Counted from the first letter of the stretch, positions 1-61,900 are shown. The stretch: DNA of 64,000 bases from an uncultured Thermoplasmata archaeon (GCA_963708255.1 CAVPSE010000002.1:373842-437841), one strand, 5' to 3'. The notes: generated from the sequence alone by a model not told the origin. Numbers and translations: made by a program.

Positions 1-1467
1 AACCTGTGCGACTGCCCGCCGTACAACGCGGACTTTGATGGGGACGAGATGAACCTCCACGTCCTCCAGAGCCAGGAGGCGAGGGCCGAGGCGAAGGTCC
101 TCATGAAGGTCGAGGAGCACATCCTCTCCCCCCGGTACGGCGGCCCGATCATCGGGATGCTGCACGACCACATCACGAGCGCCTTCCTGCTGACGTACCA
201 GAACCCCCGGTTCACCCGGAGCCAGGTCACGTACCTGCTCTCGAAGGTGAAGTACCCGATCCCGCCCCCGGCGGGGACCGAGAAGGACGGCACCGAGTAC
301 TGGACGGGCAAGCAGCTGTTCAGCCTCACCCTGCCGAAGGACCTCTCTCTCGAGTTCCGCTCCAACATCTGGAACCGGTGCGACTGCCCTCCGACCAACT
401 GCAAGCACGACAGCTACGTGGTGGTGGAGAGCGGGGTCCTGAAGGCCGGGACCATCGACGCGAAGGCGATCGCCTTCCAGAAGGGCGCCATCCTGGACGC
501 CATTGCCCGGAACAACGGCATGGCGCGCGCCCGGCAGTTCCTCGACGAGATGAGCCGTCTCTCGATCACCGCCATCGAGATGAAGGGCCTCTCGACGGGG
601 ATCGATGACGAGGACGTCCCCGAGGAGGCGAAGCGGGAGATCAACAGCGCTCTCAGCAAGGCGCGCGAGAAGGTCACCGAGTTCGTCGACCAGTACCTCG
701 AAGGGCCAGCTCGAACAGATGGCCGGCCGGTCGATCGAGGAGACGCTCGAGGTGATGGTCCGACGGGAGCTCGGGAAGGCGCGGGACGCCGCGGGCGACA
801 TCGCGGGCCGCTACCTCGGTCTCGAGAACCCCGCGGTGATCCTGGCGAAATCCGGGGCCCGGGGCTCCATGCTCAACCTGACCCAGATGGCGGGCGCCGT
901 CGGACAGCAGTCGGTGCGGGGCGAGCGGCTCCTGCGCGGCTACTTCAGCCGAACCCTCCCCCACTTCCGGCGGGGCGATCTCGGCGCCGACGCGCGCGGG
1001 TTCGTCTCCTCGTCGTACAAGCGCGGCCTCTCGCCGACGGAGGTACCTTCTTCCACTCCATGGGCGGACGCGAGGGTCTCGTGGACACGGCCGTCCGGAC
1101 GAGCCGGTCGGGGTACATGCAGCGCCGGCTCATCAACGCCCTCGAGGACCTGAAGGTCGCCGAGGACGGAACCGTCCGCAACACCGCCGGCACGGTCATC
1201 GAGTACAAGTACGGGGAGGACGGCATCGACCCGACCCGGTCGTTCCAGGGCGCTCCCGTGCCCTTGGATGAGGTCCTCGCCCACGTCCTCGGGCGCCGGG
1301 TGCGTCCCGACGTCGACTCCCGGGGGGAGCCCCTCTCCGGGGCGCCCACGGTCACGGAGGAGGAGATGGATCTCCTCGCCGAGGCCCAGCTCGAGGAGGA
1401 AGGCGACGAGGAGGAGACCGAGGAGTTCGGCACCCCCGAAGAGGGACCGGACTTCGGAGGCGAATGA
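1..1467 (+). CDS. rpoA1: DNA-directed RNA polymerase subunit A-prime, 5-prime truncated by the window edge; frame broken twice in this sequence
   Basis: Frame 1 from nt 1 reads [21 protein letters not shown] (catalytic NADFDGD). The middle part continues in the frame of ORF 605..1153 ([42 protein letters not shown]). It returns to frame 1 at [28 protein letters not shown]. Breaks lie at about 693-705 and at 1042-1047. Confidence 0.93.
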
Positions 1468-2765
1468 CGATGGCCGACGAGAAGAAGCCCGGGGCGCGCC
1501 GCCAGCTCGCCGACAAGATCCGCGAGGTGGCCCGCCGCGAGGGCGCGGCCCTCCCGCCGAGCCTGGTGGAGGAGCTCGCCGACCGGTTGGTCCACCTCAA
1601 GGTCACGCCGGCCGAGGTCACGAAGGTCACCAAGGCGGTCGCCGAACGGTTCCGCCGCGCGACCGTGGACGCCCACGAGTCGGTGGGGATCGTCGCCGCC
1701 CAGTCGATCGGCGAGCCGGGGACCCAGATGACGCTGAGGACGTTCCACTACGCGGGGGTCGCGGAGATGAACGTCACGCTCGGGCTGCCGAGGCTCATCG
1801 AGCTCGTGGACGCCCGGCGCGTTCCCTCGACGCCGATGATGACGATCTACTCCGACAAGAAGGTGAAGGCCGACCGGGACGCGGTGCAGAAGATCGCGCT
1901 CCAGGTCGAGGTCACGACCGTGCCGGACGTGGCGAGCATCGGGACCGTCGTGGAGGAACTGAAGGTCGTCGTCTCCCCCCAGGCCGCGCTCATGCAGGCC
2001 CGGGGCGTCAAGCGCGCCGACCTGGAGCGCGCCCTCGCGGAGGGGCTCGACGAGCGCTCCTTCAGGATGAGCAACGGGAGCGGCTCCGGCGAGACCCGTA
2101 CGTTCGAGATCCACCTCCTCGAGGCGGGGCACGAGAAGCTGCCGAAGCCGAAGAAGGACGAGATCGTCGAGGAGATGCCGTTCAAGAAGCTCCTCGAAGC
2201 CTCGGAAGAGGCGAAGGCCGTCCGGATCAAGGGCGTCACCAGCATCAAGCGGGCCCTGATCAAGAAGGAGAAGGACGAGTACGTGATCTACACCGAGGGG
2301 TCGAACCTGGAAGGGGTCCTCGGGATCCCCGGCGCCGACCCGGCCCGGACGACCACCAACTCGGTGTTCGAGATCTACAAGGTGTTCGGCGTGGAGGCGG
2401 CCCGGGCGGCCCTGATCCTGGAGGCGTCGCGGACGCTCTCGGAACAGGGGCTCGGCGTCGACATCCGGCACCTGATGCTCGTCTCCGACGTCATGACGAA
2501 CGAGGGGGACATCCGGGCCATCGGCCGGCACGGGATCTCCGGGAAGAAGACCAGCGTGCTCGCCCGGGCCGCCTTCGAGATCACCGCGGCGCACCTCCTT
2601 CGGGCCGCCATCACCGGCGAGGTGGACGAGCTGAAGGGCGTCGCGGAGAACATCATCGTCGGCCAGCCGATCACCCTCGGCACCGGCGCCGTCAACCTCA
2701 TCTACCGGCCCCCCACGCCGGTGAAGGCGAAGGACGTCCCGGCGGCGAAGGAAGTGGAGGCGTAG
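1464..2765 (+). CDS. rpoA2: DNA-directed RNA polymerase subunit A-double-prime
   Basis: ORF 1464..2765 contains [37 protein letters not shown] and [18 protein letters not shown]. The ATGA start/stop overlap with rpoA1 is typical of the archaeal split subunit. Confidence 0.95.
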
Positions 2766-2766
2766 G

Positions 2767-3057: not shown

Positions 3058-3077
3058 GCGATCGTCGGGCCCCTCGA

Positions 3078-4562: not shown

Positions 4563-6030
<1,468 letters not shown>

Positions 6031-6170: not shown

Positions 6171-8685
<2,515 letters not shown>

Positions 8686-8723
8686 TAAGCGACTCCGACC
8701 CTCCCCGACGACCGGGGGGCATC

Positions 8724-9464
8724 TTGGGTCCTCGCTACCCGTTCGATGTGGTCGAATCCACCCAGGCCACGGCCCTCGAACGGGCGCGGCTCGGGGTCCC
8801 TGCGATGACCCGGTTCGTGGCTCGCCGTCAGACCGACGGCCGGGGCCGCCTCGACCACCCGTGGGAGTCCCCGTCCGGCAACCTGCACCTCTCCATCGTG
8901 ATCCCGGAGCCGAGCCGGGCGGTCACGCTGTTCCCGCTGGCCGTCGGCGCCGAGCTCGCCCTCGGGCTCGAGGCGCGCTACGGGATCCGGACCGTCCTGA
9001 AATGGCCCAACGACCTTCTCGTCCCCCGCCCGGGGGCCGCCCCGAGGAAGCTCGCCGGAGTGCTGGTGGACCGGGTCGAGGATCCGGTCCACGCCGGTCA
9101 CCTGGTGGTGGGGATCGGCGTCAACGTCGCCGCCCCGCGCTCGTGGTTCGGCCCCGAGCTCTCGGACCGGGTCGCGATCCTCTCCGAGCTGGTCGAGCCG
9201 GAACCGTCCGTCGAGGAGGTGGAGTCCGTGGCGACCGCCGCGGTCGACCGCGCCGCCGCGCTCCTGCGGACCGCCGAGGGCGCCGAGCGCGCCCTGGACC
9301 GGTGCCGCCGGGCGCTCTATGGCGTGGGCCGGCGGGTCCTCGTCGACGGCCGACCCGCCGGGACCCTGCAGGCGCTCGGGGACGACGGGACCCTCTGGGT
9401 GGGCGAGGAGACGTCCCCCGTCGCCGTACGGGCCGGGGACCTCACGGTGGTGGAGGAAGCGTGA
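8724..9464 (+). CDS. birA: Biotin--[acetyl-CoA-carboxylase] ligase
   Basis: Contains STQATA ... ARRQTDGRGRLDHPWESPSGNLHLS and LKWPNDLLV ... KLAGVLVD ... VVGIGVNV, the BirA catalytic core. TTG start. Confidence 0.88.
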   Translation: MGPRYPFDVVESTQATALERARLGVPAMTRFVARRQTDGRGRLDHPWESPSGNLHLSIVIPEPSRAVTLFPLAVGAELALGLEARYGIRTVLKWPNDLLVPRPGAAPRKLAGVLVDRVEDPVHAGHLVVGIGVNVAAPRSWFGPELSDRVAILSELVEPEPSVEEVESVATAAVDRAAALLRTAEGAERALDRCRRALYGVGRRVLVDGRPAGTLQALGDDGTLWVGEETSPVAVRAGDLTVVEEA

Positions 9465-11013: not shown

Positions 11014-11021
11014 GGGGCCCC

Positions 11022-13795: not shown

Positions 13796-13883
13796 GGGGG
13801 CCTCGGGCGGCGCCGCGCCTCGACCGCGGCGGCGCTACTTGTCGTTGCGGGTCCGGCCGAAGATCGAGCTCCGCGTCGTGTCC

Positions 13884-13893
13884 TTTCTTATAC
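13884..13893 (+). promoter_or_regulatory. TATA box for rtcB
   Basis: TTTCTTATAC lies about 27 nt upstream of the GTG start at 13915. Confidence 0.45.
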
Positions 13894-13914
13894 GCGACCC
13901 GGCTGGCGGCGCGC

Positions 13915-15375: not shown

Positions 15376-18300
15376 TCGGGGGCGGCCGACGCCGCCTCCG
15401 CAGCGCGACGACGATCACCGTCGCGGCCACCGCGCCCCCCACGATCCCGCCGACGACCACCAGGTCGAGGGGCGTCCAGGCGGGGCCGGAGGGCGAGGTG
15501 ACCTGGACGATGCCCTCGGCAGACCCCCGGTAGAATCCGGTCGCGTTCACCCAGATGGGGAACTCCCCCGGGGTGGAGGGAGCCTGAAAGACGTACGGTT
15601 CCCCGTAGAACAGGCCGGTGGACACGAGGACGGCGGAGGACTGTTCGGTCAGCGTGACGTTCTCGTTCGAGCACCCGGTCACGCTGGCGGTGGAACAGTT
15701 CGCGATCGGGGTCACATACACCGAGATGGAGTCCCCGGACGAGACGATGGCCGGCGAGATCATCAGAAGCACCAGGACCGAGGTCGCGTTGAACGCCTGG
15801 AGCTCCCACCGGGTGGTGTTCGTGGTGCCGCGGTCGTCGGTCGCCGTCAGGGTGGCCGTGTAGTTGCCCCGGAGGGAGGACGTATGGTTGGCCCACGGGC
15901 CGGTCGCCCCGAGGCCGTCCCCGAACTGCCAGTCGTAGGTGTAGGGGGCGCCGTACCCCCCGCTCGCGTTGGCGTGGAACGCCACCGGGAACGGGACCAC
16001 GCCCGAAAGCACCCCGGGACCCCCCGTGAAGACGAGGGGCGCGATCGGGGGGCCGCTCACCAGAACGGTATGCGACCGGACCTGGACATCCCCGATCGAG
16101 TCCTGGCCCGTGTCGACGAGAGTGTACGCTCCGGGGCTGAAGTAGGTGTGGGAGGCGGTCAAGCCGGTGCTCCCGTTGCCGTCCCCGAACGACCAGCCGA
16201 CCTTCGCTCCGGGCATTCTCGAGGTCGCGGCCGAGGCACCGAGGACGTACGGAGTGCTGCCGCCCCCGCCGGTGACCTGGTCCGTCAGAGCAAGGGCGCT
16301 CGAGCGGCCGAAGAACGGGAAGGGGAGGGAGAAAGTGACGTTCGCGATCTCGCCGAGCGTGTCGCTGGCGTTCACCGTGATTGATAGGGGGCACCGGTCG
16401 GCCGCGAGGCAGCCGGTGGTGTACGATTGGGTCGGATCGTACCCGAACGACGAGTCGTTGTCCCCGAGCTGCCAGTCGTACTGGTACGCCCGTGGAGCCG
16501 AAGTTGGTAGAGGCGTCGAAGGCGACCACGTTCCCGGCGGCGGCGCCGGGCCCGAGCCCGACCTCCGCCGAGAGCCCGACCGGCGCCGGGGTCGCATTCG
16601 TGAGCACGTCGATGAGGAACGCGTGGGCCGCGGTCCCGTTCGACCCATCATGGACGACGCTACCGGCCACGTAGTAGCCGGGCGACGCGTACGTATGCAC
16701 CACCGCCGCGCCGATCGCAGGAGCGGAGCCGTCGCCGAACGTCCAGGTGGCGCTCGAGGTCGTACCGTTGCCACCGGAGGCGGTCACCCCGAAGTCGACC
16801 GTCAGCGGGGCCGCCCCGATGGGAGACGCGCCGGAGACGGGGGCTCCCGGCAGCTGAGCGTAGAACGCCCCGGTGAGGGCGGGGAAGGCAGTGATATTGA
16901 GCCACGTCGAGGCCTCCTGGCTCACGCTGTCGTTGGCGAAGAGGCGGATCGTGTGATTGCCAGGGATCCGGAAGATCCCGCACTGGCACTCGGTCACGTA
17001 CGGGTCGTCGCTCACGACCTGGACCGCGACCGGTCCCGCCGCTCCGAACGTCGACGCCGAGAGGTTGACGTTCGCCGGGAGGTCCATCGCCGCCGGCTCG
17101 GCCGGAAGGCTCACGGAGAGGGGTGTCTGCTCGGCGCACGAGGGCGAGCCGGCCCCTCCGACCGACACCGGCACCTCCAGCGAGGCGCCGCCATCGGACG
17201 GGGTCGCGGCGTCGGTCACAGTTACCACCGCGCAGAAGGCTCCGGCGAATCCGTACGCGTGGGTCCAGCTCGGGACCGTGGCGTTGCGGTAGTACGAGCC
17301 ATCCCCGAAGTCGAAGGCGTACAGGTACGGGGCGGTGCCGCCCGAGACGCTTGCGTCGAACGTCACGGGAGCGCCGAGCGGCACTGACGTGACGTTCAGG
17401 CTGAGCGCGACGGAGAGAGCGGCGCCGGTTCCGACGAGGACCAGCACCGGGGGCGACGCCGAGGAGTTTCCATCGACGTAGAACACCACGGCCCGGGCGT
17501 CGTACGCGGCCGCTGTCGTGTACGTATGTGCCAGCGACCCGTTGGTCGACCAGCTCGCGTTCCCATCCCCGTAGTCCACATCGTACCCCGCCACCGGTGC
17601 CGTTCCTGACGGGACGGAGGCGGTGAACCGGACCACCAGGGGGGCCGGTCCGATCCGTCCGGACGCCTCGAGGGACGGCGCGGCCGATGGGCCCAACCCG
17701 AGTCCGGTCGCCAGGGCGATTAGCAGCGCCGACGCGTTCGGGGTGCCGATCCCCGTCACCGGGTCCCAGCCGGGGCCGGCCGAGTACCCGTTCGAGCCTG
17801 AGCGGACATCATGGAAGTACTGGCCCGCCGTCGGGCCGCGGGCCAGAGCATAGAGCGACGGGTTGAGGAGCCCGAGGGGGCCCCCATGGATCTGGTCCGC
17901 GATCGCGGCATAGCCGGCCCAGATCGGGGTGGCGACGCTGGTGCCCACGACCCCGGTCGTGAAGCCGGACTGGATGATGGTCACCGGGTTCCCGCCATCG
18001 ACGGACACATCGGGGACCCCGCGGACCGCCGGGGCCGCGGGTACGCCCGGGGCGGCCTGCCAGAACGGGCGCGGGAACGGGGAGAACCCTCCTCCCGAGC
18101 CGCCCTGGTTCTGACACCCGGGCGACGTGGCCCCCGTAGAGTTGCCGGACCACGCCACCTCGCCGGCCCACTGGACCCCCTTGAGGGTCAGGTCCGTGGC
18201 GCCCACGCCCGTCGCATCGGGGTCCGAGGCTGGGTAGCTGGTCGAGTCCCCGGCGGTCCCCATCGCCGCGCCGCAGTCGCCGCTCGCGGCGAAGACGCCG

Positions 18301-19480
18301 ATGCCCTCGAGGGCCGCCGCTTCGAGCACGGGATGCAGGATCGCGTACGAGCCGTCCGAGGTCGCGTTGCACCCGGCGGAGCACGGCGTGGAGTAGGGGT
18401 TGAACGCGCCGACGTCCGGCTCTCCCCAGCTGAGGGAGATCACGTTCACGACCTGGTTCGCGACCAGCCAGTCGACAGAGAAGTACAGCCCCGCGGAAGC
18501 GTCCGGCGCGAACGTCATGTCGAGCGTGGCCCCGGGGGCGCTCGCCCGGGTCCATTCGAGGTCGAGCGCCTCCTCGGTGGCCCACCCCGTGGACGTCGAA
18601 TTCAGGTTGCGCTTGGTCGGGACAGGATAGAGGAAGCTCACGTTCCCCTTGGACAGCCCGAACATGGAGGCGAACGTCGCAAGGTCGCTCGACAGCGTCG
18701 ACTGTTTCTCCTGGCCATCGTAGGGATCCACGACCCCCACACGGACGCCCGAGCCGTTCTTCCCCGTCGAGTAGAGGCCGCTAACATTGTAGGCCGACGC
18801 GATCGCGCAGGGGGCGAACGGCTGCGCCCCTGTGCACCCGGCGGAAGCGGAGCCGGCGGCGGCGACCGAGTCGAATGGAACCACGGGGGTCTCGTTTCCC
18901 AGACCGAGCACGCCGGACCACGGGGCGACGGGGGGGAGCGTCGAGGGGGTCGGGTGACTGAAGAAGACCCGACCACCGGGCATGGTACTCCTCGAACTCA
19001 GTGTGGAAGGCCGCTGCGAGGATGGAGGAGGGGCCCTGGACCAAGAGCATCCAGTGGTCCGGGCTCGGTACGACGGAGGCCCCGGCCGCCTCGAAGTACC
19101 CGTACGGCCGCCTCGTATGAGGCGCTCGAGGGAGCGAACCGGGCGGCGACCTGTGCCGCCGTGAGGAACTGTCCGCGCTCGGGGCTGCCGGCCGAATACT
19201 CGAGGGCAAGCTGCCCCTGGAGTCCCGACGGGTCCGGAGAGGCGAGGGAGACCGCGACATCGAGGGGAAGGTTCGCGCCGAGGGGTCCCACCGCCCGAAC
19301 TCCCGGGCCGGGGATGAACGCGGGCGCCACCACAACCGGGCCCGTCGGTTGCGTGGAGCCCACGACCGTGAGGGAGGGAGCGACGGCCGAACCCAGGAGA
19401 CCCAGCGTTGGGACTCCCGCCAGCAACGCGACCGCGAGCGCCGCGACGATGACGAGGCCCCGGGTCCGCGCTCGGGTCAT
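15365..19480 (-). CDS. Giant secreted S53 (sedolisin/kumamolisin-type) peptidase with about six PKD-like repeats and a C-terminal TM anchor; three frame breaks
   Basis: The N-terminus has a signal/anchor (MTRARTRGLVIVAALAVALLAG) and a pro-kumamolisin-like prodomain (FLTAAQVAARFAPSSASYEAA ... LLVQGPSSILAAAFHTEFEEY). S53 motifs are EEALDLEW, AASGDCG and VVGTSVATPIWAGY. The repeats are of the form Y.(Y/F)DFGDG...H.Y. The C-terminal TM is LVVVGGIVGGAVAATVIVVAL followed by RRRRR. The gene is assembled from ORFs 18998..19480, 18781..19335, 15279..19556 and 15365..16774, with breaks at 19096-19101, 18984-18988 and 16483-16487. Confidence 0.85.
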
Positions 19481-20945: not shown

Positions 20946-22062
20946 CCGAGCACGAGCTCCTCGGCCAGTACCCGTTCCTGCCCGGGGCGGAGGTCCTCGT
21001 GGCAGAGCTCTCCCCGTCGCTCCAGGACCTCCTGGAGGACCGGGTGCTGGAGCGTCCCCGGGCGCTGGGTCGGATGCGGGTCGACGCCGCGGTACGGGAC
21101 CCGACCGGCGCCGTGGAGGTGGAGGAGCTCGACCAGGCCTCCCCGCCGGAACGGTTCCTCTCGTTCGTGTACGCTCGCCTGCTCGTGTCGGCCGCCCCCT
21201 CACCCGCCGCGGTACGTCGGTGGGCCGTCGCGGAGGCGAAGCGGGCGTGGCGCCGCCTCGACGCGGCGCCCTCGGAGGAGCTCTGCGAGGTGGCGCGCCG
21301 GATGTCGTACGAGCTGGAGCCGGAGGGCACGCAGGTCCGGATCCGGCTCACCGACTACCTCCACCTGGCGACGCCCATCCGGGAGGCGGACTTCCACCTG
21401 GTCCGCCAGGCCGTCCGAGGCGGCCAGGTCCTCGTGACGCAAAAGCGGGCCGCCCGCCTCGTCCAGGAGGGGGTCCGGGTGACCCTGACCCCGCCCATCG
21501 CCCTGGACGCCGGGCTCCGGGGGGCGCTCGAGCGGACCGAGGGGGAGTTCCTGAAGGAGATCGCCGAACGGGTCCCGGCGCCGAGCCTGGACCGCGCCGG
21601 CCTCCCCGGGCCTCTTCGCCCCGACCTGTTCCCTCCGTGCATCCGCAAGATGCAGCGGATGCTCGAGGGGGGAGAGAACCTCTCCCACGCCGGTCGGTTC
21701 GCCCTCGCGGCGTTCCTGCACCGGGCGGGGGCACCGGCCGACGGGATCGTCGATGCGTTCCGGGGGGCGCCGGATTTTGACGAGTCGATCACCCGCTACC
21801 AGGTCGAGCACATTACGCAACGCGACGGGGGACGCGGCTACGAGCCCCCCGAGTGCGCCACGATCCGTACGCACGGGCTGTGCTTCCGGGAGGGGGACCC
21901 GTCCGCGCCCCGCGCCCCGGACCGGGGCCGGGACGACCTGTGCTTCGAGCCCTGGCTCCGCCACCCTGTCCAGGTACCTACCGGAAGCGCGGCGGAAGGG
22001 TCATGGAACGGGAGCGGGAGGAAGGGAGCGGTACGCCTGCCGCCCCCGCGCGATCGCCGTGA
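20918..22062 (+). CDS. priL: DNA primase large subunit PriL; 2-nt frame break near the C-terminus
   Basis: Contains FPPCIRKM ... GENLSHAGRFALAAFL ... YQVEHI ... YEPPECATIRTHGLC ... CFEPWLRHPVQ, which covers the Fe-S cluster cysteines. At CAGGTACCTAC (21973-21978) the frame is lost. Removing the flanking G and C gives ...HPVQYYRKRGGRV... ending at TGA 22060-22062 (frame of ORF 21853..22062). Confidence 0.85.
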
Positions 22063-26300: not shown

Positions 26301-28341
26301 ACGCCGTGGTCTACACGTGGAACCTGGTCACGCCGACCGTCTACACGGTCGTGGCGTCGCTGGGCAGCTCTTTGGCGACGACCACCTACAACACGACCCC
26401 CGGCATCAACATCAAGACGACCGACGTCGGCGGCGGGCGGTACTCGGAGTTCAACACGATCTCCTACATCCTGACGAACCTGCGCCAGTCGAACAGCACG
26501 GCGAACCAGGCGATCTGGGCGCCGAACTCGCTCAACCAGTCCGGATACTACGACCTCCTGTACGGATGGCAGGGAGAGATCCTACCGGTCAGTACCAATT
26601 ACTACAATGGGTCGGTCGCCGGCGGCATCCACGTCTGGCTCGGATACTACGACTCCGGCGGGCAGAACAAGTTCTACACCTACGAGAGCTCTGGGGGCAT
26701 CGTCGGGGTCACCAACACCTCGGGGACGGCCAACAACACCGACCTCAACACGGGGACCGCCTCCATCTTCATCCCGGACAACCAGTCCGATTCGAACTGG
26801 TTCGTCATCCCAGGTGGGGCGAGCTTCGGTATCTCTGCGGTCGCTGCGTCGTACCCCGGCCAGTACAACCGGACGTTCGGCTACTCCGAGAGCTGCTTCA
26901 ACACCTACCCCAACCCCGTCCGGCCGGTCGCGGTCTGCCAGGTACAACGACTCCGAGCAGCGGAACTACACCGCCACTCCGATCATCGTGCTAGCGAACC
27001 CCGTCAACGTCACCACCCAGACCACGGCGGGGACGGCCCGGAGCTTCTTTGGGCTCGGCTCTCAGATCGCCCTCAACTTGAACGTCCAGCTCCCGGGAAA
27101 TGACCCATTCCTGAACGGGATCGGGACGAACTGGGACCCGTCCACGGAGCACGTCGTGACGGCGGAGGCCTATGTGGACAATGTCGCGGTAGCGAACCTG
27201 ACCCCGCCCCCGCAACCGTCGTGGCAGAACTTCACCATCCACGACAACCTCACCCAGTCGTTCGCTTCCGGGGTCCACACTCTCGAGGTGATCGTGCAGG
27301 ACTCCCTCGGCCACATCTTCACGCGAAGCCACACGTTCATCGTGGGGAGCATCGACCTCCTCGACCTGAACCTCTCGGACACCTACACGGTCCTCCCGTA
27401 CGACCTCAACTGGAGCTACTCCATCCCCTCGAACCTGATCGACAACCACACGTTCAGCCAGTCGATCGAGATCCAGTACCGAGGCGCCCGGCTGCGGGAC
27501 CAAGGCGGACCCGTGCCCGGTCGCGGTGAACCTGACGCTCCGCATCAAGGACGGGGTCGCGAACTACGGCCAGAACCTCAACCTGACGCTGCTCAACATG
27601 CAGCACTTCTACTCCGGTGCGGCCGAGCTGCCCCCCGGTCAGTATGCGGTGACCATCTGGCTCAATGCGAACCATTCGGGGAGCTTGGCGACGTCGGTCT
27701 CGACGTACTTCGTCTTCAACCCGCTCCAGGGCTCGATCAATGGGCCTTCGGAGAACGCGACCATCCCCGTGGGGAACGTGACGCTCTCGTACGCCTACTC
27801 GGGCGAGTACATCCAGAACGCAACCCTGTTCGTCTACCCCGTGGGCTCCACGTCCGCGGTCTTCTCGGCGGGCGCGTTCGTTCCGGGGATCGGCTCGAGC
27901 CTCCGGGGCGGCGCGGCGACGTGGACGGCCGTCACACCGGGAAGCTACGAGGTGGTCCTCGCGATCGGCGCCCCGTACGGGCATCTGAACGCCACCGCGA
28001 ACATCACCGTCGCGCTGACCACCGGGGCCACGTACATCAACCAGACCCACCCGAGCGGGGTCCTGGCCGGGGCGGCGGCGGCGACGACGGCCACGGTCCT
28101 GGCGATCATCGCGGCGATCATCGGCCTTCTACTGGGGTTGGTGGCAGCCCCCGCGCTCCGAGGTACCCCGAAGGGTTCCCAGCCCGTAGCGGCCGGCGCG
28201 GCGGCTCCCTGGCAGGAGGACCACGGCAAGCCCGGGACCACGTCCTCGGGCAAGCCCACGTGCCCGATCTGCCATGAGGCGTTCGAGACCGACTTCGCGC
28301 TCAAGCAGCACGAGAAGATCAGCCACGGGATCGAAGAGTAA
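23372..28341 (+). CDS. Giant secreted S53 (sedolisin-type) peptidase/glycoprotein with a C-terminal TM anchor and a cytoplasmic C2H2 zinc finger; two frame breaks
   Basis: Begins MFGSSAAP with an anchor (LGAFVIVFVLATSGVLIAGF), followed by a pro-kumamolisin-like domain (LFHHWLTLDQERAQYGPD ... SVSFTGTVGQTEGAFHT). S53 motifs are SSEMALDLEF, IASSGDGGG and WGGTSFACPATAGLLA. I counted more than 40 N-x-S/T sequons by eye. The TM is ATVLAIIAAIIGLLLGLVAAP and the tail is PWQ...KPTCPICHEAFETDFALKQHEKISHG. The gene is assembled from ORFs 22706..27103, 26607..28277 and 27526..28341, with breaks at 26941-26945 and 27476-27480. Confidence 0.85.
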
Positions 28342-35239: not shown

Positions 35240-38200
35240 ATGGAAGAGTTGAACCGCGCGAGCCTCGGGCGTACAATGCAGCCCCGTGGGCTCTCGGGAA
35301 TGCTGGCAGCCGTCGTGATGGTCGTCGTGATCTTGGTCGTCGGGGGGGCCGGCTATTTTGCCCTCAACGGTACCGGCGGCGGGGGCAACGGCGGAACCAC
35401 CACGGGATCGACTGTCTCGTGCGCACCGGCGTCGAGCCCGATCTGTCAGGCGGCCACGGCGGCACACGATGTAACCCTCTCCGTGCCGTTCAAGTCCGTC
35501 CAGCAGGGCAACCCTGTGCCCTTCACGGCGAGCCTCCCCTCGTCGGAGTCCGCCAGTTCGTTCAACTTTAACTTTGGTGACGGCGCCTCCTCGGGAGCGA
35601 CCACGAGCTCCCAGGTGACGCACACCTACAGCAACCCCGGCTCGTTCATCGCCTCGGTGAACGCGACCGTCAAGGGCGCTGTCCACGACAACTACCACTC
35701 CCTGGTCCTGGTCACCGTTCTCGGGTCCTCGTCCGCGTCCAACTCCGCGAACGTCCCGACGGTCTCGGGGACCATCACGGCCAACAGCACGTCTACCTCC
35801 AACCCGACGGCTGTGATCCAGACGAACCAGTTCGTCACCCTCTCCGGGAGTTACACGGGTGCGCCGACAAATCCGCTCTACACCCCCCAGGCACCCACGT
35901 GGTCGGCCCTCCCGACCGGTGTCACCGTGTCCTCGACCGTGTCGACGGCTACCTCGGCGAGCGGCGAGTTCACCTTCGCCGGCGCGGGCGCGTTCACCCT
36001 CGTCTTCGTCGGCTCGGCCTTGGGTCCCGCCGGTGTTGTAGCCTACCAGAACTACAGCTGGACCGTCTTCGTGGCGGCCACGGGCTCCACGGCGGGCCTC
36101 GCCGGAAGCGCGGTCGTCAGCAGCCCCCACCCAGGCTCGCTCGACGTCTACGAGCTCGCTCCGGGCGGGTCGAACTCGGAGGACCCGGCCATCGACTACG
36201 AGACAGTCGGGGCGGAGATCATCGAGAACGTCTACCAGCCGTTGATCGCCTACAACGGCAGCGAGACGGGCCCAACCCCCTCGAACTACGTCCCGATGCT
36301 CGCGACGTGCGTACCGGGCAGCACGATTGGCGCCAACAACTGCCAGTCGATGTATGGCTCCACGATGGTTTCGGGCTCCGACTACACTTTCGCGATCAGC
36401 AAGGCCGCCAAGTTCTACGACCCGGGCACCGGTAACAGCTGGTCCGTCTACCCGACGGACGTGGTGTTCTCGCTGGCCCGGACGATGGCGTTCTCCACGA
36501 ACCCCGGCGTCGGCGCGAACAACGGGTGGATCCTGACGCAGTCCCTGCTCCCGACGGGGAACCAAGGCTGGAGCACGCTCCACTATCCGTTCAACAACAC
36601 GCCGGAGAACGTGATGTCGTCCATGACCATCAACGACAGCACCGCGTGCGGCGCGACGGTGATGGCCAACTCGAACGGCTGCGTCACGTTCCACGTGACC
36701 GGCGGCGGCCAGAGCTGGCCGTACTTCCTTGAGCTCGTCGGGGACTGGCTCGGTGGCGCGATCGAGCCGTGCGGCTGGTTCTCGGCGTCGGCTCAGGGCG
36801 CGGGCATCCCGGTACTGGACAGCGGGCAACTCCTCCGGCAGCGGTGACCACCCCTGTGCCGCGATGGGTTCCGCCGGTTGGGGCGTCGCCCCGGCCAGCG
36901 TTCCCGCCACGGGCTGGGACTCCTGGGAGCTGGCAGCTTCCGCGCCGCCCTTCGTGGGCAACGTCCAGTACCACATGGCCGGCACCGGCCCCTACGCCCT
37001 GAAGAGCCTCCTGCCCGCCACGAGCTACACGCTGGAGGCGAACCCTGCCTACGTCGCGAATCCCTTCTGCTCGTGGGCAGGATGCGCCCCAGCAGCGGGA
37101 GCCTATGTGCCGAGCGTCTCCGTGACCTGGGAGACGAGCCAGGTACCGGGGGAGCAGGCCTACGAGTCCGGGACCGCTGACTTTGCCTCGATCCCGAGCA
37201 CGGACACCTCGTTCCTGCTACAGCTGTTGGCGCAGGGGAAAGTGCTGGCGACGAGTTTCCCGTCGATCAGCATTTTCTTCTTCCCGTACAACCTGTACTT
37301 CAACAAGGCAGGGGCCGCGACCTACACGACGAACCCGATCACCATCCCGTCGGACTTCTTCGGGAACGTCGGCATTCGGCAGTTCTTCACCCACGCCTAC
37401 CCGTACAACACGGTGGAGCAGACCATCAACACGAAGGACGGGATCCAGTATTTGTTCAACTACGGCGGGGCGATCCCGCAGTACATGGCCAACTACTACC
37501 CGACCAACGTGAGCTGGCCGACCGGTGACCCGTCGTCCTCGGCGACGACCCCGGGCACCGCCGCGTGGTGGTGGGCGCAGGTGACTGACTCCTCGAGCCC
37601 GTACTACGACGCGAACGTGACGAGCCAGTGCACGACCTCGTCGCCCTGCCAGCTGCCGTTCTTCGGCGAGACCGGCGCACCCGGCCTCGATGAGGCGACG
37701 GCGCTGTGGGCGTCGGAGATCAACCAGCTGTCGGGCGGGAAGATCAAGGTGAGCGTGGTGGACATCAACTTCATCACGCTGGTGATCAACTCGGCGTATT
37801 CGGGCCCCTACAACAACCCGATGCCGTTCTTCACCCTCGGCTGGGCACCGGACTACCCCGACCCGACGGACTACGTGGCGCCGCTGTACCTGCCCGACAA
37901 CACCTACACCGCGGGCGACGCGCTGAACGAGCAGCTCCAGAACCCGGAGTATATCGACGGGTCGTGCCACTCGTACGCGAGCATGGCCGACTTCTACTAC
38001 TGGGCGAACCTGGCGAGCGCGACGAACGGCGCGGGCGGGATCCCGAACAACTGCCAGGGAGCCGCCTACGACGCGATGCTGGTGGGGCTGGCGAACGCCT
38101 CGACCCTCGCCGCGGGCCCCCAGCGGGTGCTGGTGTACAACCTCGCCGAGCAGATCGCGAACGGCCTGGCCCTCTACACCTACTGGGGCCAGCAGAACAC

Positions 38201-38452: not shown

Positions 38453-38879
38453 CTACAGGAACTCGTCGGGGTTGGGGCCGACGACCTCGTTACCGAAGGG
38501 GTCGACGCCGGCCCGGTCCCGTTCCCCTTCGGGGGTCCAGCGGCCGAACCGGACGGGACGAAAGACGGTAGGGTGGAAGGTGCCGGACCGGCTCTCGCGG
38601 TCCGGGTGCGGGCGGTACCGAGAGGTACTGCCAGGCCAGGATCTCGAGATAAATGGCGAGGACCACGCCGGCGAAGACGAACGGATCGATCGGCTGGAGT
38701 CCCGTCACCAGGAGGAGGACGTCCGCGATGAAGAACCCGAGGGCGAGGTACGCCTTGGCGAGCGAGCCCCGGGCCCACTCCGCCCAGCTGGGGCCGGGCT
38801 CCTGGACGGCGGATCGGCGGGTCTCCGGGTCGACGTCAGCGATCCCGAAGAACTCCTTCAATCGCCCGCGGAGCGACAT
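38453..38879 (-). CDS. Small membrane protein at the distal end of the opp-type operon; one frame break
   Basis: ORF 38490..38879 (MSLRGRLKEFFGIADVD ... two TM spans ... EILAWQYLS). After GGTACC 38614-38619, the +1 frame (YRPHPDRESRSGTFHPTVFRPVRFGRWTPEGERDRAGVDPFGNEVVGPNPDEFL, stop 38453-38455) has much higher third-position G+C than the nominal frame. Confidence 0.5.
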
Positions 38880-41762: not shown

Positions 41763-42938
41763 TCACCTCCGGAGCCTCGGGTCGAGAGCGTCCCGCAAGC
41801 CGTCGGAGAGGAAGTTCACGGAGATCGCGAAGGCGAAGAGCGTGGCCCCCGGGAAGAACAGCTGCCACCAGGGGAAGATGCAGGTGGTCCCGCTCAGGGC
41901 CGCGACCTGACATGTGGTGATCAGTCCCTGGATCGGGGCGATAGCAGCGGCCGAGATGGATCCCCATTCTGGGAAGTAGGCCGAGGGGAAGATGTGGTAG
42001 CCCAGGAATACGATGGCGCCGAGGGCGAGGGGGATCGAGCCCACGTCCAGGGAGAGCTGGACGAAGACCGGGAACACGCTGTTCGGGACGATGTGACGGA
42101 GGAGGATACGTCCAGAACGGGCCCCGCTGGCCCGGGACGCCTCGACGTACTTCTGCTCCCGCGTCACCAAGACCTGGCCCCGGACGATGCGCGTGTACGA
42201 TCGGCCAGAACGTGACCACGAACGCGCCCATCAAAAGGAGCACTCGACCGGTCAGGGTGGGGATCGAACTTCCGATCACCGCCAGGAGAACGAGCACCAG
42301 CAAGAGCCCAGGGATCGAGAGGAAGATGTCGGTGATACGCATGATGAACTCGTCCACCAGCCCCCCGAAGTAGCCGGCCGTGGAGCCGAGAAGGAGTCCG
42401 ATGGCGGCGCCCGACAGCACGATCCCGCTGGCGATCCCGAGCGACCAGGGGGCGCCTTTGACCAACCCTGCGAAGATGTTGTAGAAGTACTGATTGTTGG
42501 TGGTCTCGAGCGAGCCGAACGGCAACGGGCCGGTTTGGAAAGTTCCGAAGCTGAAGGTGGGCGGCACGATGCCGGGATTATTTGGATCGGTAGGGTAGCA
42601 GTTCGCGGCGGGCGGGGGCGTGCCGCTCGCGGTACGTACACACCGGGATGCAGCCGCCGGTCGCGCCGGTGGAGGGCAGGCCGCCGCCCGATGTACGAGC
42701 CGCAGTAGAGCTGGAGCTGGTCCGAGGGGGCCGGGTAGGTGAACGAATAGACCGCGACGAAAACGAAGAAAACGATGATCCCGAGGCCGACCATCGCGAG
42801 GGTGTTTCGGCTCAGGAAGTACCACGTGCGCTTCAGTTGGGCGATCCGGGGGTTCGGTCGTCGCCCCTTCCGGATGGGGGGCCCCGCGGGGATCTTCTCC
42901 GTAGCAAGAGGGCTGCCCAGCGCGGGTGTGGTGCTCAT
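41763..42938 (-). CDS. oppC: Oligopeptide ABC transporter permease (OppC/DppC type); three frame breaks
   Basis: The pieces read MSTTPALGS...RNTLAMVGLGIIVFFVFVAVY | ...GGLPSTGATGGCIPVCTY | ...NQYFYNIFAGLVKGAPWSLGIASGIV...TDIFLSIPGLLLVLVLLAVIG...TFWPI | YTRIVRGQVLVTREQKYVEASRASGAR...LRHIVPNS...FLSDGLRDALDPRLRR. The breaks lie at about 42690-42705, at 42631-42635 and at about 42195-42200. Confidence 0.85.
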
Positions 42939-44623: not shown

Positions 44624-45150
44624 AGTCAGCCTCCCGGGCACTTCGGAGGGAATCGCGTTCGCGGCCCAGCCGCTCGAGTTCCCCACGGATCCGCTCCGAC
44701 TCGTCGGAGTCCCGGCTCGTTCGGAGCGCATGCTGGAGGCGACGTTCCTCCCGGGCCAGTGCCTCGGCCTGCCGGATCGCCTCCCAGCCTCCGCCCTCAC
44801 CGCCGGATGGGTCCGGAGCCGGGGCGGCCGGTGGGGATCGGGCGAACCCCCGTCGCGCCACCGCGACGACCCCGGCGATCACGGTGACCACCGCGAGGGT
44901 CCCTTCGAGGACCGGATCGGTCCACGCCGCGGAGAACCCGGTCCCGCTCAGGTTGAGGAGGACCGACCCGAAAAGGACCGTATACGCAGTGCTGAGCACG
45001 ACCGATAGGGCGGCGGTCTCGACCGCTCGGGTCAGTCCGTCCGCCCCGGCGACGCGCCATTCAGGGAAGAGGGCCCGCGCGGTGAAGAACCCCGGCAGCA
45101 CGAAGAGCAGGAGGAGGCCGACGACGGTCTCCAACGGGGAGTACCGACAT
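44613..45150 (-). CDS. Hypothetical membrane protein with a charged coiled-coil-like C-terminus; frame break after codon 2
   Basis: ATG at 45148-45150. ATG TCG G TAC TCC reads MS then YSPLETVVGLLLLFVLPGFFTARALFPEW... once one base at GTACC 45141-45145 is skipped. It otherwise appears only as the tail of the run-on ORF 44613..46499. Confidence 0.5.
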
Positions 45151-54805: not shown

Positions 54806-56075
54806 ACGGCGCCGCTCGAACGGCCGGGCACGTCGTCCTCGCGTACTCCGGCGGCCTCGACACGTCGGTCGCCATCTCATGGATCAAAGAGCAGTACCAC
54901 GCCGAGGTGACCGCCCTGAGCGTGAACGTAGGCCAGGAAGGGGAGCTGGCCGGTGCCCTCGACAGGGCCCGCGCCAACGGGGCCAAGGATGCTCGTCTCA
55001 TCGATGCCCGGGAGACGTTCGTGACCGAGTTCCTCTGGCCGGCCGTGGCGGCGAACGCCCTCTACCAGGGAGTCTATCCTCTCTCGACGGCGCTCGCGCG
55101 CCCTCTGATCGCCCGGACCCTCGCCGAGGAGGCGCTCCAGGTCGGGGCGGACTCGGTCGCCCACGGCTGCACCGGCAAGGGGAACGACCAGGTCCGGTTC
55201 GACGTGGCCCTCCACACTCTCGCGCCATCCTTGCGGATCATCGCCCCGGTCCGCGAGTGGAACATGAACCGGGACGATGAGATCCAGGTACGCCCATGAT
55301 CGGGGCATCCAGATCCGGGTGACCCAGGCCTCTCCGTACTCGGTCGACGAGAACCTGTGGGGCCGATCCATCGAGGGCGGCCGCCTCGAGGACCCGTCCC
55401 AGCCGGCTCCGGAAGAGGTATTCGACTGGACCCACCACCCCGAAGAGTGGCCCAGGTCCCCGGAGGAGCTCCGCCTCACGTTCGAGGCGGGGGTCCCCAC
55501 CCGCATCGATGGGCAGCGCCTGGACCCTGTGACGCTCGTCCGCACGATGAACCAGCGCGCCGGCGCCCACGGGGTGGGACGCATCGATCACGTGGAGGAC
55601 CGTGTGATCGGGATCAAGTCCCGCGAGACGTACCGAGTGCCCGGGCGCGATGGCCATCCTGGAGGCCCACCGGGCCCTGGAAAGCCTCGTCCACCCTCGG
55701 GACCTCCTGAGCTTCAAGGCGAGCGTCGACCGACGCTTCTCCGACCTGGTCTATGAGGGGCTCTGGTTCAGCCCGCTACGGATCGCTCTCAGCGCGTTCG
55801 TCGCCGCCACCCAGCCGGTCGTCACCGGCGACGTGACGCTGCGGCTCTACCAGGGAACGGTCCGGGCCATCGGCCGGGAATCGCCGTACCTCGCTCCTCG
55901 CCCGGAGCTCGCAACGTTCGGCCGCGGGAGCGAGTTCCCCCAGGAGCTCGCCGTCGGCTTCATCCACCTCTACGGACTGCCCAACCAGCTCGCGCACGCG
56001 CGGCGCTCCCAGGCCGCGGGCGACGGGCCCGAGGCCCGAACCGGTGCTGCGCGAACGGTTCCGCCGACCGCTTGA
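54802..56075 (+). CDS. argG: Argininosuccinate synthase; two frame breaks
   Basis: The three pieces read VVLAYSGGLDTSVAISW ... HGCTGKGNDQVRFD ... REWNMNRDDEIQ | YAHDRGIQIRVT..PYSVDENLWGRSIEGG ... GRIDHVEDRVIGIKSRETY | ECPGAMAILEAHRALESL ... The breaks are at GGTAC 55287-55291 and GTACC 55630-55634. The ATGA overlap joins it to argB. Confidence 0.9.
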
Positions 56076-57568
56076 TCGGGCCGCCGCGCGGCTCTCGGAG
56101 TCGACCCGGGAGGATGCGGCCCTGTTGCCGCACGACCTGTGGGGCTCCCTCGCGCATGCCCGGATGCTCGGCCAGACCGGGATCATCCCGGCCGCGTCCG
56201 CCCGCCGGATCGAGGCAGGTCTACGGGGTCTTGCTCGGGAGGCCGCGCGGGGCCGGTTCCCCCTCGACCCGGCGCTCGAGGACGTCCACCTGAACGTCGA
56301 GGACGCGCTGACCCGACGGATCGGTCCGGACGGCGAACGTCTCCACACGGCCCGCAGCCGCAACGACCAGGTGGCGACGGACCTGCTCACGTACCGGCCG
56401 GGACGCCTTGCTCGCCCTCGAGCTCGCCACGCTCGCCGTCGCCGACGCGCTCTCGACGGCGGCCCGGGGTCCAGACGGCCGCAACGTCGTCGATGGCTGG
56501 ACCCACCTCCAGCCGGCCCAGCGACTCTACTGGGGCCAGATCCTCGGCACCCACGCGCTGCGGTTCGTGCGGGACGCGGAGCGGTTCTCCGCCCTCCGTC
56601 GACGATCCGATCGGTCGCCCCTCGGGAGCGGCGCGATCGCGGGGAGCTCATTGCCGATCGACCGGCGGCTCACCGCGCGGCTCCTCGGCTTCGGGTCGCC
56701 CACGGCGAGTTCGCTGGACGCGGTCTCGGACCGGGACGCGGCGGCCGAGACCCTCTTCGGTCTCGCCCTCCTCGCGACCCACGCCTCCGCGCTCGCGGAG
56801 GAGCTGGTCCTCGGTTCCATGCCCGGAGGTCCAACGGGTCCATCTCGCCGACGAGTTCGTCACGACGAGCTCGTTGATGCCCCACAAGCGAAACCCCGAT
56901 CTCGCGGAGCTCGCCCGGGCGGAAGCGTCGCCGGCGGTAGGGCGGCTCGTCAGCCACCTCTCCCTGCTGAAGGGGCTCCCCGCGGGGTACCAGCGAGACC
57001 TCCAGGTCGGCAAGCCGCTGCTCATCGAGGGGGTGGACCGGGGTTTGGGGGTTCTCGAGGTCCTGCGGGGGATGGTCGCGTCGGCGAGGTTCCTCTCACC
57101 TCCGTCCTCCGCTCCGGGGACGACCGGGTCCGTCGAACTGGCGGACGCCCTGGTCCGGGCAGGCGTCCCCTTCCGGTCCGCTCATGCCCGGGTCGGCCGT
57201 TGGCTATCGGCCCGGGAGAAAGGGCCCGGAGCGCTCCCTCCGAGAGGGAGATCGTCCGAGAGTTCCCGGAACTTGCCGCGGCTGGGTTCCACTGGCCGGC
57301 CCCCCACGAGGAGCCGGAGCGTCGACGCTCCCAGGGAGGGAGCTCCTGGCCTCAGGTCGAGCGGCTCCTCGGGGAGGTGGGCCGGCGATCCCAGAGCGCC
57401 CGGGCCGAAGCGGAACAGGAGATCCGCCGGCTCGCCCGGCTACGGACCGCGCTCGGGGCGTACCCGCCGGCGTTCCTGGGCCAGTTCACGTCGCGAGGGG
57501 TTCCGGCTCCGGCGCCCGCGGGGCGCGGGGAGCGGCGGTCGACGGCACGGCGGCGGCCTGCCCGGTGA
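56044..57568 (+). CDS. argH: Argininosuccinate lyase; three or four frame breaks, C-terminal end uncertain
   Basis: The pieces read WGSLAHARMLGQTGII ... HTARSRNDQVATDLLTY | GRDALLALELATL ... THLQPAQ ... SPLGSGAIAGSS ... | ...TSSLMPHKRNPDLAELARAE ... GYQRDLQ ... FRSAHARVG ... | ...ERRRSQGGSSWPQVERLL. The breaks lie at GTACC 56391-56395, at about 56824-56830 and at about 57225-57245. Confidence 0.88.
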
Positions 57569-58804: not shown

Positions 58805-58845
58805 CGTGCGAATCTCGCTCTCGCCGAATGGCGCGGCCGCTGAGG

Positions 58846-58853
58846 TATATATA
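58846..58853 (+). promoter_or_regulatory. TATA box (TATATATA) for the second binding-protein gene
   Basis: It lies 63-70 nt upstream of ATG 58916, the same long-leader architecture as the paralog at 35240. Both leaders end with TTGGGGAA 7-9 nt before the ATG. Confidence 0.5.
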
Positions 58854-58915
58854 CGTCGATAGCTAGGTGCCCTCCCCGAGCCGAGTTGTTTCGATCTCGG
58901 GCATTGGGGAAGTAG

Positions 58916-61900
58916 ATGTCGTCCGTCGGGGAGTCCCATTCGCCGGTCCACCGCCGTCTTAACCGCCGCGCCCTGTCACCGATCACCTCTGCCGTCGTCA
59001 TCGTGGTGGTTCTGGCCCTCGTCGGGGTCGCCACCTACGGGGTCATGGGCGGATTCTCCTCGAACGGTCCGGTCACCAGCTGCCGAGCCGGTGACCTCCT
59101 TCGTGTGCGGCCAGTTCGTGAATCTCCACGACGTGAGCCTCCTGGTCCCGTTCAAGTCGGTCCAGCAGGGCAGCGCGGTCCCCTTCACGGTCTCCCTCCC
59201 CCCGTCTGAGAACCCTACCAAGGTCACGCTGAACTACGGCGACGGCTCCTCCCCCGTCTCCGCCAGCGGCACTTCCCTCAGCTACAACTACTCCCACCCT
59301 GGGACGTACATCGTCGAGGCCCAGGCGACGGTCAACGGCCTCATCCATGACAACCTGCCCCATCTGACGGTCCTGACCGTGAGCCCGGCGTACAGGTCCG
59401 GGTCGGTCGGCAACCTCCCGTCCGTGGTCGGCGCCCTCACCGGGAACTCCACCACCGCGGTCGGCTCCACGGGTGCCACCGCGGTCCTTCACTCCGCGCA
59501 GTCGGTCTCCATCAACGGCTCCTACTCCTCCGCCCCGACCAACCCCCAGTTCTCCCCGGTCGCCCCGATGCTGCTCGCGCCGGGCGGCTCGTTCGTGTCG
59601 AATGAGTCGGGCGCCACCTGGGCCTCAGGCACGGTCAGCTACACGAACCCGGGCACCTACGACATCACCTTTGTCGGGGCGTCCCAGAGCGGGAACGTGA
59701 CGCTCTATCAGAACTATACGTGGACCGTCTTCGTGGCGGCCACGGGAACCGTCGTGGGCGCGGCCGGCGTGAGCCGGTCGGTCTCCCCGCACCCCGGACA
59801 GCTCGAGTTCTTCGAGCTCGCGCCCGGCGGCGCGGCCAGCGAGGACCCGGCGATCGACTACGAGACGGTCGGCATGGAACCGATCTTCAACGTGTACCAG
59901 ACCCTGATCTCTTACAACGGGACGGCCTCCGGGCCGACCCCGAACGACTTCATCCCCAACCTCGCGACGTGCGTGCCCGGGAGCCCCCAGTGCACGAACC
60001 TGTATGGCCACCCGCTCGTCAACGCCAACGGGACCGCGTTCACGTTCGTGATCAATCCGAACTCGTCGTTCTACGACGGAGCGACCCAGAAGAGCTGGGG
60101 CGTATGGCCGACAGACGTCCTGTTCTCCTACGCACGGACGATGGGCTTCTCGACCCTTCCATGTGTCTCGTGCAACAACGGCTGGATCATCGCCCAGGCC
60201 CTCCTGAGCGCGGGCAGCGCGACCTGGGACGCCATCCACTCGACGTACAACAACACGCCGCAGAACATCCTCAGCTCCATCCAGCTCAATGACTCGAGCA
60301 CGAGCCTGGGCGACGCGGCATGCCCCGCCGCCGCGCTCGACAACCCGGCCGTGTCGCACGGCTGCGTGACGTTCACCGCCAACGGCAACGGGCACCTCTG
60401 GCCGTACTTCCTTGAGCTGGTTGCCGACGCCCAGGGCGGCTCGATCGTCTCGTGCGGCTGGTTCTCGGCCTCGGGCCAGGGAGCGGGGATCCCGTCCTGG
60501 ACCTCCGGCAACTCCACGGGTTCCGGCGACCACCCCTGCGCCGCCCCCGGCAGCCCCGGCTGGGGTGAGCCCGCCGCCCTGATCCCGGCCGAAGGCTGGG
60601 ACCAGTGGGAGCAGCTCGGGAGCGGTTCGTTCGGCTACTTCCTCGGAAAGGTCCAGTGGGCGATGCTCGGGAGCGGCCCGTACTATGCCTCGGCCTACTC
60701 CGTCGGGATCTCCTACACCCTGAAGGCGAACCCGGCCTACCAACAGAACATGTTCTGCACCTGGAAGGGGTGCGAGCCGAAGGCAGGCAACTACGCGAAC
60801 CAGGTCTCCGTGACGTGGGAGACCTCGGCCACCCCCGGGGAGGATGCTCTCGTCGCCGGCGCCGCGGACGGCGCCTCGGTGCCGACCCAGGACCTGTCGC
60901 TGCTCCTCCAGCTGATCAACCAGGGGAAGGTCAACGCCGTGAGCGCCCCGACCCTCACGATCGGCTTCTATCCGTTCAACCTGCAGTTCAGCGTCGGCGC
61001 CGCGCAGAAGTTCACCACGAACCCGATCAGCGTGAGCAGCGACTGGTTCAGCTACCTCGGGATGCGGGAGTTCTTCGCCCGCGCCTACCCGTACCAGACG
61101 GTGGAGCAGTCGATCAACACCCGGGACGGGATCCAGTTCTCGTTCGACTACGGCGGGGCGATCCCCCAGTTCATGGCGAACTACTACCCGACCAACATCG
61201 CGTGGCCCAGCACGGACCCTTGCTCGGACCCGACCAGCTCCGCCTGCCCCATCTACTGGTGGGACCAGATGCAGAACGTCGGGGGCCCGTACTACGATGC
61301 GGAGGTGGCCCAGTGCAGTACCGAGCAACCCCTGCCAGATGCCGATGTTCGGGGAGACCGGCTCGGCCACGAACGATGAGATCATGTCCCTCTGGGCGAG
61401 CTCCGTCTCGTCGATCACCAACGGGGCCGTCAAGGTCTCCCCGGTGGACATCAACTTCGTCGACGTGCTGATCAACTCCGAGTCGACCGGCCCGGGCGCG
61501 AACCCGATGCCGTTGTACTCGCTCGGATGGGCGCCGGACTACCCCGACCCCACGGACTACGTGGCGCCCCTCTACGCGGCCAACGGTACGTATGCCTACG
61601 GCGACGCTCTGGCAGAAACGTTCTACACGCCTCCGTTCAGCTCCGGCTGCAACGTGACGGCCCCCGATTACAACTACTTCGCCAACTCCACCACGTGGGG
61701 CAACAACTGCCAGGGCGAGGCGTACAAGGCGATGCTCAACGTCCTGGGGATCGCGTCGGTGACCTCGCCGGGACCCTACCGTGTCCTGCTCTACGACATC
61801 GCGGAGAAGATCGCGAACCAGCTCGCGCTGTATGTCTATAGCGGGCAGTCGAACCTGGTCGCGACCGCCGCGTCGTGGATCGACATCAACTCGGTCGACA

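Follow-up and report, generated by a model that had tools for sequence, protein, structure and literature searches.

Why should conserved genes of an uncultured Thermoplasmata archaeon lose their reading frame again and again beside the same four bases? The question is raised by a stretch of 64,000 nucleotides (GCA_963708255.1, CAVPSE010000002.1:373842-437841), hereafter the window, which is part of a 1,657,015-bp contig of a metagenome-assembled genome (MAG). An original prediction, made from the sequence alone, held that about half of all frame breaks in the window sit at the palindrome GTAC and proposed a systematic consensus error at a modified motif. Frameshift-aware alignment of the 64 kb against related genomes yielded 36 well-supported frame-breaking indels, comprising 31 insertions, 4 one-base deletions, and 1 two-base deletion, or about one frame break per 1.7 kb. 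We consider it probable that they are consensus errors in the MAG assembly, with cytosine modification of GTAC as the likeliest trigger.

How strong is the link to GTAC? The motif lies within 3 nt of 21 of the 36 events, where 1.64 are expected (P ~2e-19), and within 1 nt of 16 events, where 1.08 are expected (P ~2e-15), so that "about half" is borne out and chance co-location is indeed very unlikely. Each of the 17 GTACs listed in the original prediction has a frame break at most 3 nt away. A comparison with other 4-mers, which had been proposed genome-wide, was run on the window, and in the test at 1 nt or less GTAC, with the overlapping GGTA, ranked first among 136 strand-collapsed 4-mers. 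The quoted frequency of one GTAC per 350 to 400 bp proved to be the mononucleotide expectation; in the window, at a G+C content of 69.1%, the real spacing is one per 257 bp (GTAC, n = 249; GGTAC, n = 68; GTACC, n = 76; GGTACC, n = 19), which leaves the conclusion unchanged. As had been stated, only a subset of sites is affected, about 19 of 249 (8%). A G or C run flush with GTAC is extended in 13 of the 31 insertions, while such flush runs make up 1.7% of all G/C runs (P ~1.5e-15).

Intact reading frames were taken from relatives. The top protein matches of the window are Thermoplasmata MAGs, and its Pfam content is archaeal (RNA polymerase A'/A'', RtcB, ATP-dependent DNA ligase, SRP54, and arg genes, along with S53 pro-kumamolisin-type peptidases and PKD/SBP_bac_5 binding proteins). 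The DNA ligase and ArgJ of this contig are on record solely as shortened products of 445 and 352 aa, and neither has a database match above 94% identity, indicating that the collections searched hold no assembly of the same species. The nearest relative, GCA_037025085.1 (contig JBAIIC010000001.1, 2.16 Mb, from Centralia coal-fire soil metagenomes), is collinear with the window from 22.7 to 64 kb at ~82 to 83% nucleotide identity; every gene there is intact, and its proteins recur identically on contigs of several independent samples or assemblies. Further comparators span 42.7 to 59.4 kb (L170), 4.4 to 22.8 kb (L007, L008, and L009), and rpoA1/A'' (L087 to L089), with L009 providing the sole orthologue, 50% identical, of the first S53 gene. 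All comparator genomes are apparently short-read assemblies, and protein identity is 75 to 94%. The genes of each relative were run against the window with a frameshift-tolerant protein-to-DNA dynamic-programming aligner. For placement, each possible one-base (or two-base) repair was given a score for its match to the protein of the relative in the 12 residues to either side, giving a set of equally good positions, and DNA-level alignments were also inspected. Six compensating or poorly aligned regions (6464-6482, 8676-8729, 13825-13894, 16019-16052, 48248-48293, and 57215-57245), none of which sits at GTAC, were excluded from the counts.

Where exactly is the surplus base? The original prediction placed it as a G immediately before GTAC or a C immediately after it, and such a flush repair is best or co-best at 13 insertions (Table 1). 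It is the unique best repair at 1042/3, 1046/7, 21973/4, 21977/8, 26941/2, 27479/80, 36811/2, 55287/8, 55633/4, and 56394/5, ties with another placement at 61321-3, and is favored at 696/7 in rpoA1, where it scores best against L089 and -2 against L088; the repaired rpoA1 segment, QYSKGQLE, aligns without gaps with YKRGELE of 4qiw_A. Two palindromes carry a surplus base on both flanks. In rpoA1, the pair at 1042-1047 is the unique best repair in two relatives, three relatives read GAG-TAC-TTC where the window has GAGGTACCTTC, and the repaired gene is gapless over 237 aa against the A' chain of Thermococcus kodakarensis RNA polymerase in the solved structure (4qiw_A). In priL, the pair is again the unique best repair, giving HPVQYYRKRGGRV against the relative's HPLQYYRLRGGRV, and at the DNA level L007 reads CAG-TAC-TAT where the window has CAGGTACCTAC; a sequence search of the PDB with priL returned no match. 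The list of sites was itself incomplete, having missed the flush case in the serine hydroxymethyltransferase (SHMT) gene at 29787/8 and an insertion at 5173 in the 16S rRNA gene.

The flush rule does not cover everything. At about six to eight GTAC-proximal insertions, the surplus is another neighboring base or the placement is flat. In the DNA ligase gene, flush-G placement scores -13 and yields FRTCTR against the conserved FRxVPR, whereas deletion at 34373-5 alone restores FRTVPRAEL, which the three closest homologues have in common; the surplus base on the sense strand is one C, or the T, of ACC-T-GTAC. At 38620, placement in the CC scores -14 (single relative, 72% identity). At these two sites and at 42630, a base other than the flush G or C was probably inserted. 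For the DUF1616 membrane protein, removal of the C gives MWYSPLE, as in the relatives, and removal of the G gives MSYSPLE, a W-to-S change, so that at 45144-6 either the C or the flush-G reading is possible from the sequence. The three sites in the first S53 gene are not placeable against an orthologue of 50% identity. The suggested mechanism, in which the base opposite a modified cytosine is read twice, would account for the 13 flush cases among the 21 GTAC events but not for the six to eight or so insertions of another base, nor for the C inserted between T and A in the 16S rRNA gene.

Table 1. Positions of the indels in the window, with the best placement of each.
Gene or class	Position and motif	Strand	Change and placement
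rpoA1	693..697 GTACC		surplus C at 696/697, favored, not unique; alternative placement 701-707
rpoA1	1042..1047 GGTACC		surplus base on both flanks, 1042/3 + 1046/7; natural AGTACT
priL	21973..21978 GGTACC		surplus base on both flanks, 21973/4 + 21977/8; natural AGTACT
Second S53 gene	26941..26945 GGTAC		surplus G, 26941/2; margin at least 4; relative CAG-TAC
Second S53 gene	27476..27480 GTACC		surplus C, 27479/80; relative CAGTAC-GAGG
SHMT (glyA), residue 405 of 410	29787..29791 GGTAC	minus	surplus G, 29787/8
PKD/SBP_bac_5 binding protein 1	36811..36815 GGTAC		surplus G, 36811/2
argG	55287..55291 GGTAC		surplus G, 55287/8; two relatives CCA-GTACGCC
argG	55630..55634 GTACC		surplus C, 55633/4
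argH	56391..56395 GTACC		surplus C, 56394/5
PKD/SBP_bac_5 binding protein 2	61318..61323 GTACC		surplus C, 61321-3; G at 61323 equal score
DNA ligase	34368..34375		+1 just 3' of GGTAC on + strand (34373-5); not flush G
141-aa protein (small membrane protein)	38614..38620		+1, best G at 38620, directly after GGTACC
oppC	42195..42200		+1, best A at 42200, 2 nt 3' of GTAC
oppC	42630..42635		+1, best C at 42630, directly 5' of GGTAC; GG placement -8
DUF1616 membrane protein, codons 2-3	45141..45146	minus	+1, sense ATGT[C]GGTAC vs relatives' ATGTGGTAC
First S53 gene	16483..16491		+1 at or adjoining GGTAC, ~16489; placement spread 16487-16495 (orthologue 50% identical)
First S53 gene	18982..18988		+1, best A at 18982, 2 nt before GGTAC; GG placement -5
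First S53 gene	19096..19105		+1 within GTACCCGTAC, ~19102; placement flat (orthologue 50% identical)
16S rRNA	5170..5175	+	C inserted at 5173 inside conserved GGTAC; window GGTCAC
16S rRNA	5206..5211	+	G run G6 vs G7, one short
Non-GTAC +1 insertions	9847-52, 10223-5, 22837-8, 40949-52, 40984-91, 43055-6, 43359-64, 46403-5, 56822-6, 59083-4		+1
Non-GTAC -1 deletions	12212, 31578, 53777-8, 54023-9		-1
Non-GTAC	42685-7		-2 or +1

The context of the affected sites is uneven. Counted on the plus strand, the flush events are balanced between the 5' flank (6) and the 3' flank (7), and the natural base on the inserted side is T (7) or G (6), never A or C. AGTAC is present on one strand at 9 of 11 affected sites, compared to 33% of all GTAC sites, and 3 of 10 AGTACT hexamers are hit, both double-flank events and the 696 event being natural AGTACT. 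This excess points to a preference for certain flanks or to an effective motif longer than GTAC. As candidates for the latter, CAGTAC and CCAGTAC were rejected, with about 7 of 25 CAGTAC sites hit and many untouched, leaving the AGTAC preference alone. Substitutions show a weak asymmetry of their own between 22.7 and 64 kb: at positions where GTAC occurs in the relative (L001/L167) but is missing from the window, the window sequence is ATAC or GTAT in 16 cases, versus 6 in the reverse direction. This is a weak hint, too slight to support a claim, that G>A or C>T miscalls at GTAC may occur besides the insertions.

Are the affected genes really broken? Protein identity to the relatives is high and does not differ between the 40 aa before and the 40 aa after each break, the orthologues are in frame without the extra bases, and removal of these bases restores colinearity, in agreement with the earlier statement that these genes are not pseudogenes. 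The extra bases could nonetheless be real mutations, either because the lineage is decaying and its genes have become pseudogenes or because GTAC sites are damaged and wrongly repaired, as might follow cutting by an endonuclease or glycosylase specific for GTAC, and archaeal GTAC-specific restriction enzymes do exist (e.g., PabI, cleaving GTA/C). However, rpoA1, priL, DNA ligase, SRP54, SHMT, and argG/argH would then all be inactivated in one 64-kb stretch; the lesions are motif-bound, conservation downstream of them is unreduced, decay by stop codons or substitutions is not visible in the alignments, and the homopolymer length errors found alongside point to general consensus inaccuracy. Genuine mutation is therefore very improbable.

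The 16S rRNA gene bears on another possibility, that the extra bases are real and that expression of the genes relies on recoding at GTAC, such as a programmed frameshift, a bypass, or editing of the transcript. The window holds a complete archaeal 16S rRNA gene (4563-6030) with exactly two indels relative to L007 (96% identical) and to the Rfam SSU_rRNA_archaea consensus. At 5173, L007 reads GGT-AC and the Rfam consensus GGU.AC, with the window base shown as an insert; the short G run at 5206-5211 is an ordinary homopolymer error. Ribosomal recoding cannot rescue an rRNA gene, and the 16S GTAC insertion is therefore not translation-related. What speaks for recoding is that essential genes are affected and that conservation is high to either side of the breaks, so that real extra bases would need some rescue. 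But apart from the similar insertion in the 16S rRNA gene, the changes comprise single insertions (paired on both flanks at two GTACs), single deletions, and one -2 event, with varying bases and offsets, the shift site is conserved in no orthologue, and ~36 breaks in 64 kb would require a genome-wide mechanism of a kind never described; we give such recoding almost no credence. Codon phase was dropped as an argument against it, since GTAC nearly always falls as NNG-TAC in this high-GC3 genome and is uninformative. Because of the rRNA insertion, the mixture of insertions and deletions, and the variety of inserted bases, recoding is effectively excluded on these alignments. Pseudogenes are effectively excluded as well, and the affected genes are in all likelihood not really broken. 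The 16S rRNA gene is a solitary one: no 23S rRNA, 5S rRNA, or tRNA gene was found anywhere in the 64 kb.

If neither the genes nor their expression is unusual, what introduced the extra bases? As judged from the sequence comparison, a systematic consensus error, as originally proposed, is well supported because the orthologues lack the extra bases, the repaired genes are colinear with them, the 16S rRNA gene is hit as well, and two palindromes are flanked on both sides. The extra bases would then be absent from the organism's DNA and would have been introduced by the consensus of an indel-prone assembly, presumably a long-read one. Insertions strongly dominate the indel spectrum (31 versus 5), an unusual balance for a long-read consensus, for which deletions in homopolymers are the error commonly described.

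Modification of GTAC is a plausible trigger, because the errors are motif-specific, palindrome-symmetric, and apparently organism-specific and because GTAC is a known target of archaeal methyltransferases. If both strands of GTAC carried N4-methylcytosine (m4C) or 5-methylcytosine (m5C), the raw signal or the kinetics would be disturbed; at a subset of sites, with AGTAC contexts preferred, the consensus would tip to an insertion (~8%), most often through a double call of the bounding G or C, on either strand and at some sites on both. Insertions of a different base, 1 to 3 nt from GTAC or inside it, would be less frequent, and a weaker, similar effect may operate at CCGG. Several points weigh against this account. 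No DNA methyltransferase was found in the 64-kb window (of a 1.66-Mb contig), whose sole methyltransferase, at 31570-32165, is a small class-I S-adenosylmethionine enzyme below all NCBIfam cut-offs. GTAC is not depleted (observed/expected ratio [O/E], 0.95 in the window and 0.97 in the relative), so that avoidance of GTAC, considered as a sign of restriction, was not found. Errors occur at no more than ~8% of GTAC sites, some of the insertions are of bases other than a flush G or C, which one simple mechanism fails to cover, and published methylation-linked nanopore errors are mostly substitutions rather than the insertions seen here (PMC11610603). Among other short palindromes, CTAG is strongly depleted (O/E, 0.33 in the window and 0.25 in the nearest relative), while CCGG and GATC, like GTAC, are not.

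Could the same errors arise on unmodified DNA? A context bias of the base-caller, polisher, or assembler (AGTAC/K and C/GAG, the slash marking the junction) might tip a low-coverage consensus, and this consensus artefact without DNA modification is a serious rival, although we hold it to be distinctly the less probable of the two. The small fraction of GTAC sites hit and the importance of their flanks (AGTAC at 9 of 11) would be expected from it, the remaining indels lie in C/G-rich runs, and the missing methyltransferase gene speaks for it as well. The non-GTAC insertion at 59083/4, CTG[C]CGAG, shares the C/GAG junction with the three GTAC[C]GAG events at 27479, 55633, and 61321, which hints that local k-mer context may contribute to the error. 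On the other hand, the training data of base-callers include unmodified GTAC from many genomes, and a general tendency to insert bases there would be notorious. Errors bound to a motif and specific to an organism are, moreover, the recognized signature of modification (PMC11610603), and GTAC and CCGG are both short palindromes and known archaeal m4C targets (PMC11033074).

Does the error extend beyond GTAC? Among the 15 non-GTAC indels, CCGG lies within 1 nt of the candidate positions in 9, versus 2.1 expected (P = 5e-5, or ~0.007 after correction for 136 k-mers), a stronger link than that with homopolymers of 3 or more (8 versus 4.4 expected). The typical change turns CCGG into CCCGG or CCGGG (10223, 43359, and 56822), and the rate is ~0.8% of 1,084 sites. 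From these counts, CCGG may be a second error hotspot of lower rate and possibly a modified palindrome. From the pattern as a whole, this lineage would be predicted to encode a cytosine methyltransferase specific for GTAC, and maybe one for CCGG, which, if true, would be a routine addition to a known enzyme class. It is very improbable that the insertions are instead the footprint of an unusual cytosine modification bulkier than methyl that this soil lineage places on GTAC and perhaps CCGG; if they were, assembly errors by themselves would have revealed an archaeal DNA-modification system that is new.

The biological interest of these errors is low, but they matter for MAG curation. Within the 64 kb, annotation would label at least 21 genes as split, as truncated, or as pseudogenes though they are almost certainly intact; among them are rpoA1, priL, DNA ligase, SRP54, SHMT, argJ/B/G/H, opp permease genes, an acyl-CoA carboxyltransferase gene, and the genes of two binding proteins and three S53 peptidases. 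For this MAG, the errors affect gene-based completeness, the count of pseudogenes, the reconstruction of metabolism, and rRNA phylogeny alike, and the contig needs modification-aware re-basecalling or polishing, or polishing with short reads. More generally, frame breaks locked to a motif offer an inexpensive way to spot assembly artefacts and, possibly, methylation motifs. Two groups of large proteins are also encoded in the window: three S53 proteins with a pro-kumamolisin activation domain are very large and secreted (15653-19471, minus strand; 23372-28338 and 48181-50876, plus strand), and two proteins of ~1,020 aa are fusions of PKD and SBP_bac_5 domains (35240-38309 and 58916-61980, plus strand), one adjoining an opp-type ABC transporter. 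Together, these proteins suggest a peptide-scavenging lifestyle.

How do the breaks in the window compare to known systems? With programmed frameshifting, such as +1 in prfB and -1 in dnaX, they share the trait that a gene reads through an apparent frame break. Known recoding sites, however, are conserved among orthologues, shift in one direction, have a defined slippery or stimulatory context, and act on mRNA only, none of which holds here. Archaeal methyltransferases recognizing the same 4-bp palindrome are well documented and include M.MjaV, M.MhuII, and M.MlaZII (m4C), M.NviEN76ORF23050P of Nitrososphaera (m5C), and M.PabI, which produces N6-methyladenine (GTm6AC); in M. jannaschii, M.MjaVI modifies CCGG to m4C alongside m4C at GTAC (PMC11033074). 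In contrast to these systems, the window shows neither the gene nor restriction-type avoidance of GTAC. Modified bases are known to give rise to systematic nanopore read errors that are bound to a motif and specific to a strand (PMC11610603), and the errors described by Liu et al. (2024, Genome Res, PMC11610603) and Lohde et al. (2024, PMC11610573) likewise follow a short organism-specific motif, are tied to one motif strand, so that either flank of a palindrome can be hit, and persist into the consensus at some sites. Those errors are chiefly G>A and C>T, whereas the present ones are single-base insertions seen in the consensus sequence. Long-read-only MAGs (Sereika et al. 2022, PMC9262707; proovframe, 10.1101/2021.08.23.457338) differ in that their classical errors lie in homopolymers and are often deletions, while 31 of the 36 indels here are insertions and the main hotspot is a single-base run bordering a palindrome. 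Yet the density of frameshifts in such MAGs is similar (about one per 1 to 2 kb), genes are shortened or split in the same way and restored by homologue-guided repair, and the non-GTAC breaks and the change from G7 to G6 in the 16S rRNA gene fit that picture.

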